DNA of 63,711 nucleotides, counting the filler, from an uncultured bacterium (GTDB lineage Bacteria; Hinthialibacterota; Hinthialibacteria; Hinthialibacterales; Hinthialibacteraceae), in the NCBI GenBank assembly GCA_964449065.1. It is 9 parts of 9 records of this genome, joined end to end, with 100 filler letters (N's around TTAATTAATTAA, not from the genome) between each part and the next. Parts side by side here need not be neighbours in the genome. Positions count along the whole stretch, not along the records: positions 42,828 to 49,731 come from CAYVAZ010000281.1; 8 more parts are not named here. One strand, written 5' to 3'. The notes below the pieces were generated by a model. It had not been told where the DNA came from. It saw only the letters and a list, made by a program, of their open reading frames with translations, and made no database searches. Positions 42,674-49,831 of the stretch are shown one piece after another (the first letter of the stretch is position 1; every line of letters begins with the position of its first letter). The position numbers and the translations under genes were made by a program.

Positions 42674-42916
42674 CTCATGTTACGCAAAATTCTATACGGT
42701 AGGTATTGTTGCGAGCTTCAAACCCGTNNNNNNNNNNNNNNNNNNNNNNNNNNNNNNNNNNNNNNNNNNNNTTAATTAATTAANNNNNNNNNNNNNNNNN
42801 NNNNNNNNNNNNNNNNNNNNNNNNNNNACCATAAAGATGCATGCTATCAGGGCTATTAAAGCGCCATTGAATAAGGTCAATTACCTTAAAAACTGAGTCA
42901 AGAGTCATGCGGTCCA

Positions 42917-43234
42917 TTACTGTCTCCAATACATTTCGTCTTCGAATCTGTCAATTTTTTCGCTGAGCGAACTAATAGATTCGTTTAAGTTTTTTACAGC
43001 TCTTTCATACTCATGTCTAAGATGATCAAGCGCATCTTGCATATCTTGCATAGAATCCTCGAAACCCTCAAACTTTTCTTCAAGCTCTTGAATATCAGAA
43101 TTGCTCATAGCAGCGTAAAGTTTCTCGGTAAGAGTATTTTCATCAACTAATACATTAAGAAACTTAAAATTAGCTAGCATTGCTTCTGCGCCAGCTAAAG
43201 CGGCAGACCAAATAAATTCATCTACATCAGACAT
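42917..43234 (-). CDS. Phage hypothetical coiled-coil protein
   Basis: ORF track; acidic and helical. Confidence 0.6.
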   Translation of the reverse strand: MSDVDEFIWSAALAGAEAMLANFKFLNVLVDENTLTEKLYAAMSNSDIQELEEKFEGFEDSMQDMQDALDHLRHEYERAVKNLNESISSLSEKIDRFEDEMYWRQ

Positions 43235-43236
43235 TG

Positions 43237-43413
43237 TTATACCTTTTTCTTGCCAACTTGCAGTTTGGATTCGGGTTTAATGTTTTTATCAAGATCAGTA
43301 ACTTTTTCACCATCTACCTTGATGGCTCCTTGTTTAATTAGTCGACGTGCTTGTGACTTGGACACAATTAACCCATCTTCAAATAATCGGTCAACCAATT
43401 TCTTTTCACTCAT
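43237..43413 (-). CDS. Stand-alone S4 RNA-binding domain protein (58 aa, like the TyrRS C-terminus)
   Basis: Manual translation: MSEKKLVDRLFEDGLIVSKSQARRLIKQGAIKVDGEKVTDLDKNIKPESKLQVGKKKV. Confidence 0.8.
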   Translation of the reverse strand: MSEKKLVDRLFEDGLIVSKSQARRLIKQGAIKVDGEKVTDLDKNIKPESKLQVGKKKV

Positions 43414-43452
43414 TATGAAGATCCTGAATTATACTTGCGGTGTCAAATAATT

Positions 43453-43608
43453 TTACTTAGCCTTTTTGCAAGCAGCAACACCTTTGGGTGTAAGTACATA
43501 GCGCACTTCAAGCAAACCCTCATTAATTAATTGCTGAATTTCCTTTTCACTCTCTTCTTTAGAAATGTTAGCTTCTTTTAGGATGTCAGACAATTTGTAT
43601 GTATTCAT
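43453..43608 (-). CDS. Small phage protein (winged-helix-like)
   Basis: Manual translation: MNTYKLSDIL...LINEGLLEVRYVLTPKG; GGGGG RBS. Confidence 0.5.
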   Translation of the reverse strand: MNTYKLSDILKEANISKEESEKEIQQLINEGLLEVRYVLTPKGVAACKKAK

Positions 43609-43617
43609 AATTACCCC

Positions 43618-43848
43618 CTAACCGTAATTAATTTCTTCCTGAATTCGTCCGCACTCTACAAGCCTAAAAAGTCGTTCTTTAAGCTCAGCAAGAAAGGGCT
43701 TCAAACCATCTCCCGTGTCTTCCATATCATCTTGAACAGAATCAACACAAGTAAGAATCCATTCAAGCTCATTATCGCTCAGCGGAAGTGTTTTGCTTTT
43801 ATATTTAATCGCAATTTCACCCATAACAAGCCTTTCTAAATTTACCAC
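43618..43848 (-). CDS. Phage hypothetical protein
   Basis: ORF track; in an operon-like array. Confidence 0.55.
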   Translation of the reverse strand: MVNLERLVMGEIAIKYKSKTLPLSDNELEWILTCVDSVQDDMEDTGDGLKPFLAELKERLFRLVECGRIQEEINYG

Positions 43849-44261
43849 TCAAACCTTCGAGCCATCTCAATAACCTTCTCAGCGGGAACACCATGAGTGT
43901 TGCGCTCAGCATATTTAAGAATACTTTTGTCGTCAAAGTCACCAACAACTTCAATGTGAACCTTGTAACCGTACTTATCAGCAAGTTCAAGGTAGGGTTT
44001 AAACTCCCACTCACGAGTATTAGTGTTGTCTACAATCACACAAGGAGTTTCGTTACACATAGCCTCATCAGTAAGCTCTCGACAATACTTGTGAGCTTCA
44101 CTAAGCAACTTGGGGTTGAAACTGTAGTTGCCCTTATCGTCTTCAAAAAAGTGATCGGCAGAGCAGATACAGAAAAGGCTATAACTCTTAGCAATTTCCC
44201 TGGCGCGAGTGCTCTTACCAGCACCAGGGATTCCGCGCATAATATAAAGGACCTTTGTCAT
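43842..44261 (-). CDS. AAA_33 / N4BP2-like P-loop kinase
   Basis: RGIPGAGKST, SADHFF, VIVDNTN, RNTHGVP. Confidence 0.85.
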   Translation of the reverse strand: MTKVLYIMRGIPGAGKSTRAREIAKSYSLFCICSADHFFEDDKGNYSFNPKLLSEAHKYCRELTDEAMCNETPCVIVDNTNTREWEFKPYLELADKYGYKVHIEVVGDFDDKSILKYAERNTHGVPAEKVIEMARRFEW

Positions 44262-44627
44262 TTAATCTTTCTTGTATTTTTCAATAAACTCATCAAAAGT
44301 ATATACTTTGTCCCTATAAAAAACTTCCTTGCTCTTTACCAATACTTCAGGAACACAATACGAATTGTCGCCCATTTGAGTATCGATACCAAAGCCGGTA
44401 ACATCCATCAACCTTTCATGAGTAGCTTCAATGTTATCAGGAATCTTAAGCATTTCGCTAAAAATAATTCGTGCTAGATAAGATGGATCATTCCAGCGAC
44501 CACGCCCACGGTCAAGAGCATTTGCCAAGTCGTGTTGGACATAATAACCAGTCCAGTGAGTGTAAAAATAAACTGAAGTATCATCTTCCATCGTTACCTT
44601 GATATTTCCTCGTTCACCCATTGTCAA
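44262..44627 (-). CDS. Phage hypothetical protein
   Basis: MGERGNI...VYFYTHW.G...RWNDPSYLARIIF. Confidence 0.65.
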   Translation of the reverse strand: MTMGERGNIKVTMEDDTSVYFYTHWTGYYVQHDLANALDRGRGRWNDPSYLARIIFSEMLKIPDNIEATHERLMDVTGFGIDTQMGDNSYCVPEVLVKSKEVFYRDKVYTFDEFIEKYKKD

Positions 44628-44878
44628 GTCCTTTGTATTGGTCTAAGCCACACATTTACATATTTCTTGTCTTTAAATTTTATATCTGTTACTTTCCACG
44701 TTTCTCCATCAATTTTAATCAAGAAATTTTTTCTTGGTAGATTATCATGTTTAATAACTTGCGTACCAAAAATACGTGTAAAGTAAGTTTCATCAATTTC
44801 GTTGAAAGCATAAGTCATAAAGGTAGTCTCGTACAACTTAGTTTCTTTGTAGGCTGCTAGGCTAATAATCTCACCCAT
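44624..44878 (-). CDS. Phage hypothetical protein
   Basis: ORF track. Confidence 0.55.
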   Translation of the reverse strand: MGEIISLAAYKETKLYETTFMTYAFNEIDETYFTRIFGTQVIKHDNLPRKNFLIKIDGETWKVTDIKFKDKKYVNVWLRPIQRT

Positions 44879-45013
44879 GAAGCTCTCCATCAGTCCAGCA
44901 AATTGGATCGGGCTCAGCGCCGCTATTTGTATAATCCTCTTAAAAATGTGCTCTCACGGTTTTGGCTCACCTTTATACAAGGCTGCTTACCGCCGTGAGA
45001 ACACTTATGACTT

Positions 45014-46054
45014 TTAAGCCGCTTGGGCAAGCTGCACACCGAATCGGTATGCGTTACTGTTTACCTTGGCACCACGACCGAAGATAACAGAGTCAAGCCG
45101 CTTCTCAGCACCGCCAGGAGCAAGTTTGGTTTTGTCCTTGTCGGCAAACTCACCATGGACAGTAATCTCATGGTTAGCGTAATTGGTCAAGGCATTAAAA
45201 GCGCCCCAGACCGTTCCCTGATTTTCAGCAGCAAGGTCATCACCGCTAGCATAAAGCTCCTGAATCCGATTCAGGTTGTTCTGAGTACGGGTTGGAAGCT
45301 CCTTAAGCTCAACCGTAGTGTCGGCATCAATTGCCTTGCGGAAGTAGTTATGGGCATCACCATCAGTGATTCGCGCCTTAGCCATCTTAAGGTAAACCTC
45401 ACCACGCTGACGAGTTTGACGCAATGCAGCAGCCATAATCTCTTCAGCACGCTCAAGGCGATTATTGTGGTTCTTCGTATGTCGGACACCAATACCATAC
45501 TTAGCAGTCTCAATCATCATAGTAGCCATCATGTTCGCACAAGCAAAACGGAAATCAGTAGGATTAACAACCGTCTTGAGCGAACCATCCAAGCCTTCCG
45601 CAAAAAACAGATAGGAGCGAATGGGGTCATTGCGAGTAACATCAAACTCGCTCAGCTTGACTTGTGCAAAAAGACGCGAGCCACCCTTCATGAAGCCGAT
45701 AGATTCCAAAAGCGGGTTAGACTCTCCAGTAACTCGCCGGATAGTTTCAGCAAGTCGCTGACCACCAGCAAGACCCTGAATCATTTGCTTGCCACCCGTA
45801 CCCAGCACCTTGTTATCAGTGTCGCGAATAATTGCGAAGGTATCGGGAACAGTAACTTCACTTACACCATCAGACAGCAAAGCCTTACAGGGTTGCGCAG
45901 AAAGCGATGAGAACCAATCAGGCATGTGCTCGGGAGCATCAGCAAGTCGGACACCACCAGGAATCGAGTAACCGCCCATGTGTGGAGTGTGTCGGTCACC
46001 ATTCATAATAGCAACGTTAAGGTCCTTGCTGTGAACTTCGTCAAAAGTTTGCAT
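45014..46054 (-). CDS. DUF932 phage/plasmid-like protein
   Basis: IIRDTDNKVLG, GGSRLF, DGS, RFACAN, RHT, GTVWGAFNALT. Confidence 0.85.
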   Translation of the reverse strand: MQTFDEVHSKDLNVAIMNGDRHTPHMGGYSIPGGVRLADAPEHMPDWFSSLSAQPCKALLSDGVSEVTVPDTFAIIRDTDNKVLGTGGKQMIQGLAGGQRLAETIRRVTGESNPLLESIGFMKGGSRLFAQVKLSEFDVTRNDPIRSYLFFAEGLDGSLKTVVNPTDFRFACANMMATMMIETAKYGIGVRHTKNHNNRLERAEEIMAAALRQTRQRGEVYLKMAKARITDGDAHNYFRKAIDADTTVELKELPTRTQNNLNRIQELYASGDDLAAENQGTVWGAFNALTNYANHEITVHGEFADKDKTKLAPGGAEKRLDSVIFGRGAKVNSNAYRFGVQLAQAA

Positions 46055-46093
46055 TTAGTTTTCTCTCCAAAAAATTGTTTACAAGTTTAACAG

Positions 46094-46438
46094 TTATCGA
46101 TTCTGTCGACGACTGTCATGATAATATTGAACTTTTTCTCGCCAACGCTGGGAGCTTTCATTTATCGGCTCATCCGCAGCATTCAACAAAGAAAGAGGGC
46201 AATCATAATAATAAGGATGCATAGTTTCATCCATGGGCTTATACATCCATTCGCTGTCTCGTTTTTCAATCAAATAAAGACTAATAAAGCTTTTATTTGT
46301 CGACCGCAATTTAGCTAGCACCCAAAGATGGCGACCGTAGCAGGTAGTTTTGTGATCTACAACAGAATCGCCAAGGTCACGCAACACATCAAGCACAATA
46401 TCTTTTGGTTTAGCTCCATAAATTCCATACCAACCCAT
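46094..46438 (-). CDS. Mobile-element hypothetical protein (MGW...YKPMDE.M.PYYYDCP family)
   Basis: Conserved-looking YKPMDETMHPYYYDCP and WRE motifs. Confidence 0.65.
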   Translation of the reverse strand: MGWYGIYGAKPKDIVLDVLRDLGDSVVDHKTTCYGRHLWVLAKLRSTNKSFISLYLIEKRDSEWMYKPMDETMHPYYYDCPLSLLNAADEPINESSQRWREKVQYYHDSRRQNR

Positions 46439-46545
46439 GTTTAATCTCCCTCCTTAGATTTTTGTTTTGCATTTGCCGTAGATCAGCTAACGCTATACTC
46501 GATTGGTACACCCGGTGGGAGTCGAACCCACACTGTGCAGATTTT

Positions 46546-47234
46546 CTTACCACTATAGTTTTCACTACCTACTTAAAAAGTAGTTTGTGGTCTGGACTTT
46601 CTCTTTACCATAGTCTAAATTAGACTTTAGGTATTGGCTGTCAAGTCTCTACACTTTCAATAGGAGTAACTTATGAAATTAAGAAAGTACAATGAAGACC
46701 AATTAAGAAAAGCTATAAAATCTTCATTCTCAATTCGTCAAACTCTTCAAAAACTCAACGTAGAAGCCTATGGTGGTAACTACGATATATTTAGAAAAGC
46801 TATTAAATACTTTCAAATTGACATAAGTCATTTTACTGGTCAAAGTTGGAGTAAAGGCAAGCAATTTCCTAGACGAAGAAAGAATATTGAAGAATATTTA
46901 TCTAACAAAATCCCTATTCAGTCTAATAAATTACGTAAATACCTTTTGGAAGATCAAGTTTTTGAACATACATGCAGTATGTGTTAAAAAGATACTTGGC
47001 TTGGAAAACCAATTCCTCTTGAACTTGATCATATTAACGGAAACAATAAAGACAACAATTTAGAAAATCTAAGATTGTTATGCCCTAATTGTCATGCGTT
47101 AACTCCCACCTATCGTGGTAAAAATAAATCTCCTAAAGCTTAGCTCGGGATTAGCATCAGCTCTACCTGTTAAGCCTTCCCCGAATTTAACCAACTTCAC
47201 CTACAAAATTTCTTAAGTAGGGCTCAAATTACTT
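46546..47234 (-). ncRNA. Group I self-splicing intron (trnL-UAA type), 689 nt
   Basis: Starts AAGTAATTTGAGCC after exon CTT; P AAATTCGGGGAA, Q AATCCCGAGC, R GTAGAGACTTGA, S AAGAGAAAGTCC; terminal omega-G. Confidence 0.9.
46673..47143 (+). pseudogene. Intron-encoded HNH homing endonuclease, antisense, with one in-frame TAA at 46985
   Basis: AGGAG RBS; ...CSMC*KDTWLGKPIPLELDHINGNNKDNNLENLRLLCPNCHALTPTYRGKN. Confidence 0.88.
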
Positions 47235-47330
47235 AAGTCTGCTGCCTCTGCCTGTTGGGCTACGGGTGCATTGTTTAGCCCCAGCCCTACGCTTCGCTAG
47301 GGCTTTTGGGCCACTTGATTAACTTACTTA

Positions 47331-47624
47331 CTACCGTACTTTATCTTCCAGCACAAACTCCGTCAAAATTTCTTCCATGTAGTGTAGCTTTTGCTCCATG
47401 GTAGATACCTTATCAGGAATGTCAACAAGACTTGTGGTGCCATCGCGAATATTATCCAATTCGCCTTTCAGGCTAGCCACAAAAGCAAGTAACTGCTTTC
47501 TAGGCGTATCTTGCTTAAAATCTTCGCGTTGTGATACAGTGCGTTGATTCCATTGCTTAGGAAAGCTATAGTTACTATTTACAGAATAGGAATCGTATTG
47601 TGTAGGTGTTTGTTTTAAACTCAT
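47331..47624 (-). CDS. Phage hypothetical protein
   Basis: ORF track. Confidence 0.55.
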   Translation of the reverse strand: MSLKQTPTQYDSYSVNSNYSFPKQWNQRTVSQREDFKQDTPRKQLLAFVASLKGELDNIRDGTTSLVDIPDKVSTMEQKLHYMEEILTEFVLEDKVR

Positions 47625-47839
47625 GGCTTTTGAATCTCAACTTTCTTTACATCACCTTCAAAAACATCGCACACCTTGTTTTTGTCAGTTTGGAGCCATT
47701 GCACCGTGTGACCAGTATGACCAGGCCCATAAAAGCCAGGCTCCGCAATGATAACGCCATACGTACCTTGAGATACATCAGCACCGGCGGGATCAAGGTC
47801 TCTCAGCGCAATAACAATGTCGCCAACTTTAAAAGTCAT
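47621..47839 (-). CDS. Phage SH3/KOW-like small protein
   Basis: FKVGDIV...G..GVI...VQW pattern. Confidence 0.55.
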   Translation of the reverse strand: MTFKVGDIVIALRDLDPAGADVSQGTYGVIIAEPGFYGPGHTGHTVQWLQTDKNKVCDVFEGDVKKVEIQKP

Positions 47840-47848
47840 GGTGTTATC

Positions 47849-48187
47849 CTACGCTTCATTAATCCAAGTAAGCTCATAAACGGAGTTTTGGGTTTTAATA
47901 ATAAGGCCGTTAGGATGGGCAGAAAAAGACTTTACAGCGCTTGTGGTCATTATTCCTCCACACTCAATACCATTTCTAGTATCTCTCATGATTACAAGCG
48001 GCTGGCCTGGCTCTATAGTGTGCCCAATGTAACCCGTTACAGTATACTCTACAGGCAAAGAGATTCTAGAATCAGGCTTTCTGCGATTATACTCTCCCCA
48101 ATCAGGAGTGGGGCAGCGTGCTTCTGGAACACTTGAGAGTTTTTTAATCATTATGTAGGAAAAACCAGTCTCTGAAAATCTAGTCAT
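47849..48187 (-). CDS. Phage hypothetical protein
   Basis: TSAV...IKTQNSVYEL. Confidence 0.55.
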   Translation of the reverse strand: MTRFSETGFSYIMIKKLSSVPEARCPTPDWGEYNRRKPDSRISLPVEYTVTGYIGHTIEPGQPLVIMRDTRNGIECGGIMTTSAVKSFSAHPNGLIIKTQNSVYELTWINEA

Positions 48188-48214
48188 GATACACCATTTC
48201 TATGTTTAATCGGT

Positions 48215-48291
48215 TGGCCCGCCAGGCAAGACTCGAACTTGCGACCCTCGGCTTAGAAGGCCGATGCTCTATCCAGCTGAGCTACTGGCGG
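48215..48291 (-). tRNA. tRNA-Arg(UCU)
   Basis: CCGCCAGTAGCTCAGCTGGATAGAGCATCGGCCTTCTAAGCCGAGGGTCGCAAGTTCGAGTCTTGCCTGGCGGGCCA. Confidence 0.95.
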
Positions 48292-48299
48292 AAATTAAA

Positions 48300-48581
48300 T
48301 TACCATTCATAAGTTGGAAGATTATCCGTAACAGGACCATCGCGGTCAAACTTAATGTAGGTACAACCAAGCTTTTGAGCCAGCTTATAAGATTCCAAAA
48401 AGCCTCCAGAAAGTTCCGAGAAATCCGGTTGGAAAGTCTTTACAGGTCCCACCCACACTAGCCATCCAGTATCCTCCAACTCATAATGCACAATATTATT
48501 TGAAATATTAAACTTGTCTCCGTCATCCTCTTTTAGATGCGCAGTAGATAGCACCAAAACGTTTAGTATTTCGGGTTTCAT
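48300..48581 (-). CDS. Phage hypothetical protein (LSTAH...FDRDG family)
   Basis: VLSTAHL and YIKFDRDGP motifs. Confidence 0.65.
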   Translation of the reverse strand: MKPEILNVLVLSTAHLKEDDGDKFNISNNIVHYELEDTGWLVWVGPVKTFQPDFSELSGGFLESYKLAQKLGCTYIKFDRDGPVTDNLPTYEW

Positions 48582-48678
48582 TTTAATTCCTTTTTTGCTT
48601 CAATTAGTAAGTCTTTACCACACTCATTTTAAGTTCCTTCTTAAGATGCAACAAATGCTTATTATCTCAAGGCTTATA

Positions 48679-48939
48679 TCAGTATCCGGTTTGAATTTGG
48701 CGTTCAGACCATGCGGTCATCTTATCTCGTGAACCCCAACACCGGCTATCCATGCAGTTGTAAACATATTTTACAATTTCGTGCAAGGCATTTAGGTTAC
48801 CGTTGTCGGCTTTTGCAAAGGCTCCCTGTAGGTCATTCTCCAGGACCGCACAAAGAAAGCCGCCCGGATAAATACCGTGTTGCTCCCAGCGCTCCAGTGA
48901 ATCTAAAGTCAGACCAGGAATAATGTCATACTCACTCAT
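48679..48939 (-). CDS. Phage hypothetical protein
   Basis: PGGFLCAVLENDL..A...AD...CWGS. Confidence 0.7.
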   Translation of the reverse strand: MSEYDIIPGLTLDSLERWEQHGIYPGGFLCAVLENDLQGAFAKADNGNLNALHEIVKYVYNCMDSRCWGSRDKMTAWSERQIQTGY

Positions 48940-48953
48940 TTTTATCTCTCTAC

Positions 48954-49334
48954 TTATACGCTATCCGTTAGGTTAGCACAAAAGTCTTGGAAAGCTTCAG
49001 GATGCAGGTAAATCGTGTAACCCATATCCTTACCGCGAAAGATTGAATGCTCTACCGCACACACATTAGGAGTCAAGGTAATCTCACCAATATCCTGATT
49101 GTATGGGTTATTTTGCATTTGCCTTTTAAAACTAGCTTGCTCAAGGTCAAGTTGTCGACCAGTAGCAAAGTCACGGACCGTAGTGGTATCCTTAGAACCA
49201 CCGTCCCAGAAGTTACTAACTCGGACAGTCTTACGAGCCATTACCTTAACCTTGCGACGTCCCTTGTAATTTGCGGGAATAAACCGCCTTACTTCAGAAG
49301 CTTTCTTAGAAAACTCTAATTTTTTAGGTAGCAT
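48954..49334 (-). CDS. Phage hypothetical protein
   Basis: FWDGGSKD...HSIFRGKDMG.TIYLHP. Confidence 0.65.
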   Translation of the reverse strand: MLPKKLEFSKKASEVRRFIPANYKGRRKVKVMARKTVRVSNFWDGGSKDTTTVRDFATGRQLDLEQASFKRQMQNNPYNQDIGEITLTPNVCAVEHSIFRGKDMGYTIYLHPEAFQDFCANLTDSV

Positions 49335-49339
49335 TGCAA

Positions 49340-49561
49340 TTATCCTTTTTGCTGTACGATTGAGTCAGGAGCGCCAGCAGTAAAGTTAGCCAGTATATGG
49401 CACAACGTAGCTTCCGACACTTCCCGCACAAAAGTTACGGGTTCACCGTTAGGATCCCTGCGAGTGTAAGCTAAACGATAATCAAAATCCGGATTGTCGT
49501 CAATCTTACTAATTTCAACATTAAGCTTACTTTCATAAATTGCTGTCGAAAAGTCAATCAT
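49340..49561 (-). CDS. Phage hypothetical protein
   Basis: ORF with GGAG RBS. Confidence 0.55.
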   Translation of the reverse strand: MIDFSTAIYESKLNVEISKIDDNPDFDYRLAYTRRDPNGEPVTFVREVSEATLCHILANFTAGAPDSIVQQKG

Positions 49562-49831
49562 AATAACTCCCTAGTGTTACTTATGAACCGCCGCTACCGC
49601 CGCGTTCACAAACTCAATATAACAATCACCCAAGTAACCACTCGCCTTGAATGAATGGTCCATGCCACGGCCCCAGTAGTCAAGCGGAACCATGCAATCT
49701 CCAGCTCCACCGTTAGGCTCCATGTAAATTGNNNNNNNNNNNNNNNNNNNNNNNNNNNNNNNNNNNNNNNNNNNNTTAATTAATTAANNNNNNNNNNNNN
49801 NNNNNNNNNNNNNNNNNNNNNNNNNNNNNNN

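Follow-up and report, generated by a model that had tools for sequence, protein, structure and literature searches.

The element described here is a split transfer RNA (tRNA) gene of the tRNA-Leu(UAA) type, interrupted by a group I intron that in turn contains an HNH endonuclease gene on the opposite strand. It lies in a window (the whole stretch of DNA that was analysed, positions 1–63711) in which about nine contigs, each of roughly 7 kb and all from a single genome bin, are strung together with paired 44-base runs of N between them. The contig that carries it, C281 of bin G000 (515 contigs, 5.2 Mb), occupies positions 42828–49731 (6.9 kb), and statements about the contig are valid for that part of the window only. 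A first-pass annotation had placed a plus-strand HNH open reading frame (ORF) antisense in the P6 region of the tRNA intron, and this arrangement was confirmed: the ORF, from its ATG at 46673 to its TAG stop at 47141–47143, lies wholly within the 689-nucleotide (nt) intron, in the loop of a paired P6. The features of the locus, with their basis, are as follows.

46504..47269, minus strand: split tRNA-Leu(UAA)-type gene (ARAGORN -i; equals C281 c[3677,4442])
47235..47269, minus strand: 5' exon, 35 nt, ending ...GACUU (sequence reading, pairing table)
46546..47234, minus strand: group I intron, 689 nt, IC3-like, 'Leu.3Ug' insertion type, CUU/a...g/AAAA (RF00028, helices P1–P9, relatives)
46504..46545, minus strand: 3' exon, 42 nt, starting AAAAUC (sequence reading, ARAGORN)
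47223..47237, minus strand: P1 hairpin, CUUAAG (47237–47232), loop UAA, UUUGAG (47228–47223) (sequence reading)
47130..47135, minus strand: P6 5' strand UAGGAG, inside the last HNH codons (...S P K A stop) (sequence, pairing)
46661..46666, minus strand: P6 3' strand CUCCUA, six standard pairs with 47135–47130 (pairing table)
46673..47143, plus strand: HNH endonuclease gene, with 156 codons and a stop when the TAA is read through (Pfam, PHROGs, relatives)
46662..46666, plus strand: AGGAG ribosome-binding site, spaced 6 bases from the ATG and complementary to the P6 3' strand (sequence, pairing)
46985..46987, plus strand: in-frame TAA at codon 105 (ORF reading, alignment, contigs of two runs)

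The intron is inserted between U34 and A35 of the anticodon UAA, with a U at position -1. The 5' splice site follows U 47235; this U34 is the last base of the 5' exon and the U–G wobble partner in P1, whilst the last base of the intron is a G (omega-G, 46546; intron end ...AAG). The window intron itself forms P1 (with the U–G pair), P2, P3, P4, P5, P6, P7 (with a bulged A), P8, P9.0 and P9. GAAA loops cap P2 and P9, all pairs are standard in P3 (6/6) and P4 (7/7), and P7, P8 and P9 are complete. An alignment of 31 rows, comprising the window intron, 16 ORF-less relatives and 14 other ORF-bearing relatives, was constructed with the ORFs removed and the flanks joined by script. Standard pairs accounted for 98 % of P3, 97 % of P4, 100 % of P7, 100 % of the closing stem of P8, 97 % of P9.0 and 97 % of the P9 GAAA hairpin, and the C–G, U–A and U–G pairs of P1 were invariant (31/31). 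Several pair types were seen in each of P3, P8 and P9, with covariation in P3 and P8; P7 was invariant, so that no covariation support was gained or lost there. Unguided folding of 15 ORF-less relatives with RNAalifold recovered the tRNA cloverleaf together with P1–P6, P8 and P9, and 38 of its 66 pairs showed compensatory change.

When the two exons were joined by script, ARAGORN returned a 77-nt cloverleaf tRNA-Leu(taa) whose D stem has 3 bp and whose variable loop has 5 nt; A73 is present and the CCA is encoded in the gene. A15 with U48 is also present; these and A73 are identity features of tRNA-Leu in E. coli. The same short arm, with its 5-nt variable loop, is seen repeatedly in tRNA(UAA) genes of related loci (for example L052, L097, L099 and L139).

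The product of the plus-strand gene was placed among HNH endonucleases. The CxxC, HNH and CPNCH motifs listed in the first-pass annotation are all present (CSMC, LELDHINGNNKDNNLENL and CPNCH), and the hidden Markov model search of the read-through protein proposed there gave a passing match to PF01844 (21.7 bits, cut-off 21.4), with PF13392 (24.5 bits) just under its cut-off of 24.8. The C-terminal piece alone scored 27.5 bits for PF13392 and 21.6 bits for PF01844, and residues 2–155 matched phrog_10822, 'HNH endonuclease', in PHROGs (E 1.1e-49). Residues C101, C104, D119, H120, N128, N132, C137, C140 and H141 were invariant in a 21-row alignment; the D-H...N...N/H residues are presumably catalytic and the two Cys pairs presumably bind zinc. 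An AlphaFold2 model (predicted local distance difference test score, pLDDT, 84.2) gave weak fold matches to the HNH domain of ZRANB3 (Z 4.5), to McrA (Z 3.8) and to I-HmuI (PDB 1u3e, Z 3.0), and the N-terminal 60 residues showed a weak likeness to small helix-turn-helix DNA-binding domains (Z 3.7–4.1). Fold searches with the model found nothing at E ≤ 0.001 with Foldseek and nothing at Z ≥ 5 with VIA-align, and a profile search of solved structures returned McrA only (E 0.63).

The whole HNH gene is the P6 loop read on the opposite strand, and its ribosome site and 3' end are the two strands of P6, so gene and ribozyme would constrain each other. The HNH messenger RNA could fold into a mirror image of P6 and thereby mask its own ribosome site. 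The AGGAG had been correctly recognized in the first-pass annotation, where the spacer to the ATG was given as seven bases; it is six. The TAG was likewise correctly described as abutting the Q element: it touches the conserved P4'/'Q' stretch that comes after P4.

As it stands, the gene is interrupted. Under translation table 11 it encodes 104 amino acids followed by a 51-codon tail, the TAA falling between the first Cys pair and the HNH motif. Among 20 aligned relatives this codon specifies K in five, N in seven, R in four, G in two, E in one and L in one, and the two nearest relatives both have K. Twenty of the 44 columns that are invariant over the 21 aligned sequences (window included) lie downstream of the TAA, and no frameshift or deletion occurs there. 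The letters of the TAA were identical in contigs from two sequencing runs, X1 (46589–47341) and X2 (46760–47107), with 0 differences in each, and are therefore not an assembly slip. Among the 160 other related loci described below, an internal stop was found in one (L141). The conclusion we draw from these sequences is that the break is real and recent, and that the HNH gene in its present form probably makes no active enzyme. The usual homing cycle includes a degeneration stage, to which a broken endonuclease gene in a working intron belongs, and in the window copy the homing endonuclease gene has most likely been inactivated recently, within a still-intact intron.

It seems quite improbable that the endonuclease is instead still made and still homing, whether by low-rate read-through or suppression of the TAA or from hidden intact copies. 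All 20 family-invariant residues after the stop are kept; the contigs, with depths of 5.3 and 3.7, drop rare variants; and it has been argued in a preprint on recoded phages that the production of intron endonucleases could be delayed by in-frame stops. On the other hand, TAA is the commonest stop among the window ORFs (49/80), the tRNAs found on the contig are tRNA-Arg(UCU) and the split tRNA-Leu(UAA), neither of them a suppressor, and translation table 11 leaves the contig's other ORFs open. Recoding of the stop codon was rejected on the same grounds. The base after the in-frame TAA is an A, and TAA-A is an efficient terminator context.

Relatives of the HNH protein numbered 5017 at E ≤ 0.001, mostly of about 154 amino acids, the best being 70 % identical. 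From these, 160 related loci (the 80 best genomic and the 80 best viral-contig loci) were obtained by means of two peptide patterns and classified using nhmmer profiles of the two intron flanks, tblastn and ARAGORN. The gene was tied to a tRNA-Leu(UAA) gene in 145 of the 160 loci, which fits a homing endonuclease aimed at tRNA-Leu(UAA). The layouts were distributed as follows.

40/160: nested antisense, as in the window (29 genomic, 11 viral)
9/160: nested in P6, sense
36/160: just outside (a few inside) a tRNA-Leu(UAA) split by a short intron that lacks an ORF
60/160: within 250 nt of an uninterrupted tRNA-Leu(taa)
5/160: one intron flank only (contig ends)
10/160: link not found

The homing system for tRNA-Leu suggested in the first-pass annotation is partly supported: the layouts in the family fit it, whereas the present copy, with its premature TAA, is probably inactive. 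Homologs in the same intron position and orientation do exist (the 40 nested-antisense loci), but other layouts are also common. Free-standing homologs with no link to tRNA introns had been named as evidence that would speak against homing; many relatives are indeed free-standing, yet they stand within 250 nt of a tRNA-Leu(UAA) gene. The absence of ORFs that was described as normal for trnL(UAA) introns is true of the classical introns of cyanobacteria and plastids, but not of the 49 ORF-bearing relatives found here.

The 36 neighbours of split tRNAs comprised 14 convergent genes, 18 on the same strand downstream and four that were scored as upstream. At L053, one of these four and from a Bacteroidota metagenome-assembled genome, ARAGORN placed a sense gene within the 5' part of a 742-nt intron and not in P6; this would be a third nesting position for the family, and L059, L144 and L148 were grouped with it. 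The nested-antisense form occurred across Gammaproteobacteria, Acidobacteriota (these two making up the 29 genomic loci) and viral contigs, with different exon types. Several Gammaproteobacteria have a Gly(GCC)-Cys(GCA)-Leu(UAA) cluster whose Leu gene is the one that is split. At L001, ARAGORN -i detected a split tRNA-Leu(taa) with a 205-nt intron where Rfam and plain ARAGORN were blank.

In a FastTree phylogeny the nested-antisense genes all fell on one side, 31 of them making up most of a 35-row group, and the window gene paired with L022 and L086 (support 90). The layout labels were clustered on the tree, yet at least 30 changes between them were needed, and the gene and the intron have therefore met more than once. 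Such repeated, independent associations could also be expected if the main target were the ORF-less intron copies and not the intron-less tRNA gene, with the endonuclease gene moving alone into P6 and the intron serving as a mere shelter. The presence of the same family in P6 in both orientations (40 antisense, nine sense), its position near the 5' end of the intron at L053 and the at least 32 loci just outside an ORF-less, intron-split tRNA are in keeping with this explanation. We nevertheless regard it as unlikely: 60 of the 160 relatives adjoin an uninterrupted tRNA-Leu(UAA) with no intron at all, so that the common feature of the family is the tRNA gene and not the intron, and relatives at the Salinisphaera locus described next lack both the intron and the gene.

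Salinisphaera sp. PC39 (L005), a cultured organism, carries the element, and the gene was found in one of the 31 genomes of its family. In two other members of this family (G029 and G035), ARAGORN detected the Leu gene of the same Gly-Cys-Leu cluster as an uninterrupted 87-nt tRNA-Leu(UAA), and in both of them the BLAST pieces join the two exons directly; in PC39, plain ARAGORN detected only the Gly and Cys members of the cluster. The element is thus optional among close relatives at the Salinisphaera locus, a finding that applies to that locus and not to the window's own. Two viral loci, L133 (1–1000) and L139 (2650–3464), share about 95 % identity over the endonuclease gene and its upstream spacer and diverge abruptly at a break at the 3' end of the tRNA, beyond which the tRNA-Leu(UAA) genes are unrelated: one has a long arm and an intron, the other a short arm and no intron. 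This looks like the exchange of a cassette at the border of the tRNA.

A 38 %-identical relative was also noticed in Escherichia phage SP22 (L163, LC519489.1 27223–30102), where it is annotated as 'hypothetical protein' and ends 2 bases before a 77-nt tRNA-Leu in the tRNA array. Two further genes, annotated as 'putative phage endonuclease', stand between other tRNAs of this array.

Transcription of the minus strand would give a precursor tRNA from which the intron, once folded, is predicted to splice itself out; the grounds for expecting self-splicing are the U–G wobble of P1, the P3–P8 core, the bulged-A P7, the GAAA loops and the omega-G. The product would be the 77-nt short-armed tRNA with anticodon UAA. 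To judge from the intact relatives, the HNH gene would be read from the other strand with its own ribosome site and a putative promoter of its own, and its product would make a cut or a nick close to the conserved GACUU/AAAAUC anticodon region of uninterrupted tRNA-Leu(UAA) genes. When the damage is repaired from an intron-bearing copy, intron and gene would spread together. Three promoter-like sites are candidates for transcription of the two strands.

47425–47398, minus strand: promoter-like site TTGACA-16-TACCAT upstream of the tRNA (consensus scan only)
47366–47338, minus strand: promoter-like site TTGACG-17-TAAAGT upstream of the tRNA (consensus scan only)
46593..46621, plus strand: weak promoter-like candidate TGGACT-17-TAAATT (8/12 consensus positions)

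Expression of the HNH gene would by logical need require antisense transcription. In the plus-strand candidate, TGGACT is the complement of the invariant P7 strand and TAAATT lies in the P8 hairpin. A -10-like hexamer (at least 4/6 matches, with A2 and T6) was present at the P8 spot in eight of 40 distinct nested-antisense sequences, two of which had a perfect TATAAT, compared with 0/21 and 0/4 in the other intron classes. The P7/P8 site may be viewed as a lead and not as a finding.

On this evidence we consider it quite probable that a mobile group I intron of the classical anticodon-loop type for tRNA-Leu(UAA), with an antisense HNH gene in P6, occupies the locus, and that the gene of this copy has recently been inactivated whilst the intron remains functional. 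Several points weigh against this interpretation. The window intron scored 31.9 bits with RF00028 (E 4.4e-6), below the 50-bit gathering cut-off, and RF00028 run over the whole of genome G000 gave nothing at E ≤ 0.001 despite the intron being present, which makes that search uninformative on other introns. A variable arm as short as this one is unusual in tRNA-Leu of bacteria. Runs X1 and X2 come from one study, and at their depths a minority of intact copies could be hidden. For the plus strand, no sigma-70-type site was found between 46212 and the ATG (about 460 nt) at the scan threshold of 9/12, and the candidate described above reaches only 8/12. The 160 loci are not a random sample of the 5017-member family; the nhmmer profiles were seeded from the window's own flanks, so that diverged introns may have been counted as 'none'; and the tree was constructed with FastTree only, with support below 80 at many forks. 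Splicing, cleavage and homing by the element are all predicted from sequence.

The low RF00028 score can be attributed to the 471-nt insert that is the ORF. In the alignment to the model the 5' half matched well, whereas the second half of the model was forced into the ORF, and eight of 10 ORF-less relatives passed the cut-off (57.5–66.4 bits), with one scoring 47.4 bits and one having no match. At the gathering threshold, Rfam detected only tRNA-Arg in the whole window. The subthreshold score, the unusually short variable arm and the already broken endonuclease gene would also be expected if the tRNA gene were dead, disrupted by an HNH cassette with intron remnants and yielding no functional tRNA. 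That seems highly improbable, however, as every core helix of the ribozyme pairs in the window's own sequence, the exons give a clean cloverleaf and the short arm is a recurrent form, with 22 of the 64 uninterrupted tRNA(taa) genes in related loci being 80 nt or less.

The contig differs from the rest of its bin in composition (G+C content 41.2 %, compared with 47.4 % for G000). It carries a DUF932 gene, tRNA-Arg(UCU) and many small ORFs, and five of the 15 ORFs tested had PHROG family matches. A true homolog of the HNH gene was present in none of the 19 other genomes of the family to which G000 belongs, which gave two weak HNH-domain matches only. Because of the low G+C content, the PHROG matches and the lack of a true homolog in these 19 genomes, we take the contig to be phage or phage-like DNA that ended up in a bacterial bin. 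Megablast comparison of 50,697 phage records with 24 kb of the window revealed no close cultured relative, tRNA-Arg being the sole match, and no close relative of the contig itself was found. The sequencing runs that contain the stretch are microbial-mat metagenomes from a single study. The HNH gene had been called the only clear plus-strand gene on a minus-strand contig; its strand is as stated, but 'only' is not strictly shown, since a plus-strand ORF of 194 amino acids (43893–44477), which has no PHROG match, lies between minus-strand ORFs and may be a second one.

Three further observations concern the bin and the mats. An uninterrupted 83-nt tRNA-Leu(UAA) with a long variable arm is present on contig C390 (2166–2248) of G000; an intact endonuclease of the family might conceivably target this gene if the organism of the bin is the host. 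ARAGORN -i reported about 10 further tRNAs with long 'introns' in G000 (on C334, C385, C35 and others), among them tRNA-Arg(cct) with 544 nt and with 112 nt; many calls of this kind are spurious. A 35-base stretch of the intron core (46583–46617) was matched, with five differences, by a far more abundant contig in all three runs (depths 65.7, 34.6 and 13.3, compared with about 5 for C281), a sign that other organisms of the mat carry related tRNA introns.

Group I introns in tRNA-Leu(UAA) genes are classical. The window intron shares with them the insertion CUU/intron/AAAA, the U at -1, the omega-G and the core sequence and helices, and its relatives pass RF00028. The classical introns are, however, ORF-less and chromosomal, whereas the window intron lies on a phage-like contig in a short-armed tRNA and has a 471-nt opposite-strand HNH gene in P6. 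A Synechocystis tRNA-fMet intron reportedly encodes I-Ssp6803I, as Bonocora and Shub are said to have described in 2001, and that enzyme, to go by the titles of papers on it, is said to have a PD-(D/E)XK fold. Both cases combine a bacterial tRNA group I intron with an endonuclease aimed at the anticodon region, but the Synechocystis enzyme is not of the HNH type and the tRNA is a different one; the tRNA-fMet intron is not known to have an opposite-strand layout. Free-standing enzymes offer another comparison. SegB is a GIY-YIG endonuclease, and in the cyanophage psbA system a free-standing endonuclease and an ORF-less intron reportedly take part in 'collaborative homing'. The 96 relatives that stand beside tRNA-Leu(UAA) or its intron match these two systems, whereas the window's copy is nested and not free-standing.

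SegB is described as a free-standing homing endonuclease in the tRNA region of T-even phages (PMC13096335). ORF-less tRNA-Leu-TAA introns are described in Beggiatoaceae (PMC4853749), and an antisense homing endonuclease gene is described in the Didymium iridis nuclear ribosomal DNA (rDNA) intron Dir.S956-2, with P6 among the loops known to hold such genes (PMC3679873). Dir.S956-2 resembles the window intron in having its homing endonuclease gene opposite the strand of the group I ribozyme; it belongs, however, to a different intron subgroup, resides in eukaryotic nucleolar rDNA, and differs in its endonuclease family and route of expression. HNH nucleases inside phage group I introns are exemplified by I-PfoP3I (PMC3428280) and I-HmuI, whose introns interrupt genes for proteins and hold the endonuclease gene in the sense orientation. 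A preprint by Williams (2020) mapped 5292 split bacterial tRNA genes and remarked, without analysing the matter, that introns above about 400 bp may hold protein-coding genes. A literature search whose coverage left out most subscription journals found no description of an HNH-bearing or antisense-ORF tRNA-Leu intron, nor of an opposite-strand endonuclease gene in bacterial or phage introns, an arrangement that is documented for nuclear rDNA introns.

The family places classical tRNA-Leu introns in many phage contigs. This contrasts with a 2014 review, according to which every phage intron then seen interrupted a protein-coding gene although phage tRNA genes are numerous (PMC3984707). The ribosome site and 3' end that double as strands of P6 represent compact dual coding on two strands, and the window copy provides a dated snapshot in which the ribozyme is intact but its passenger gene freshly broken. 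Both Salinisphaera sp. PC39, as a carrier in culture, and the intact relatives offer a route to the site of a nuclease specific for a tRNA gene.

More tentatively, it is possible that the HNH family and the tRNA-Leu(UAA) intron together constitute a mobile system that spans phages and several bacterial phyla, has all stages of the partnership coexisting and may serve as a phage weapon. If this is true, the stages would run from free-standing genes beside an uninterrupted target, through free-standing genes beside an ORF-less intron, to genes nested in P6 in either orientation. These would then be the first group I introns in phage tRNA genes, and the first opposite-strand endonuclease genes in bacterial-type group I introns, to be described in print. 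The nuclease would cut the uninterrupted tRNA-Leu(UAA) gene of rival phages or of the host whilst the intron shields the phage's own copy. The family is a natural series in which to study how free-standing homing endonucleases become the passengers of introns.

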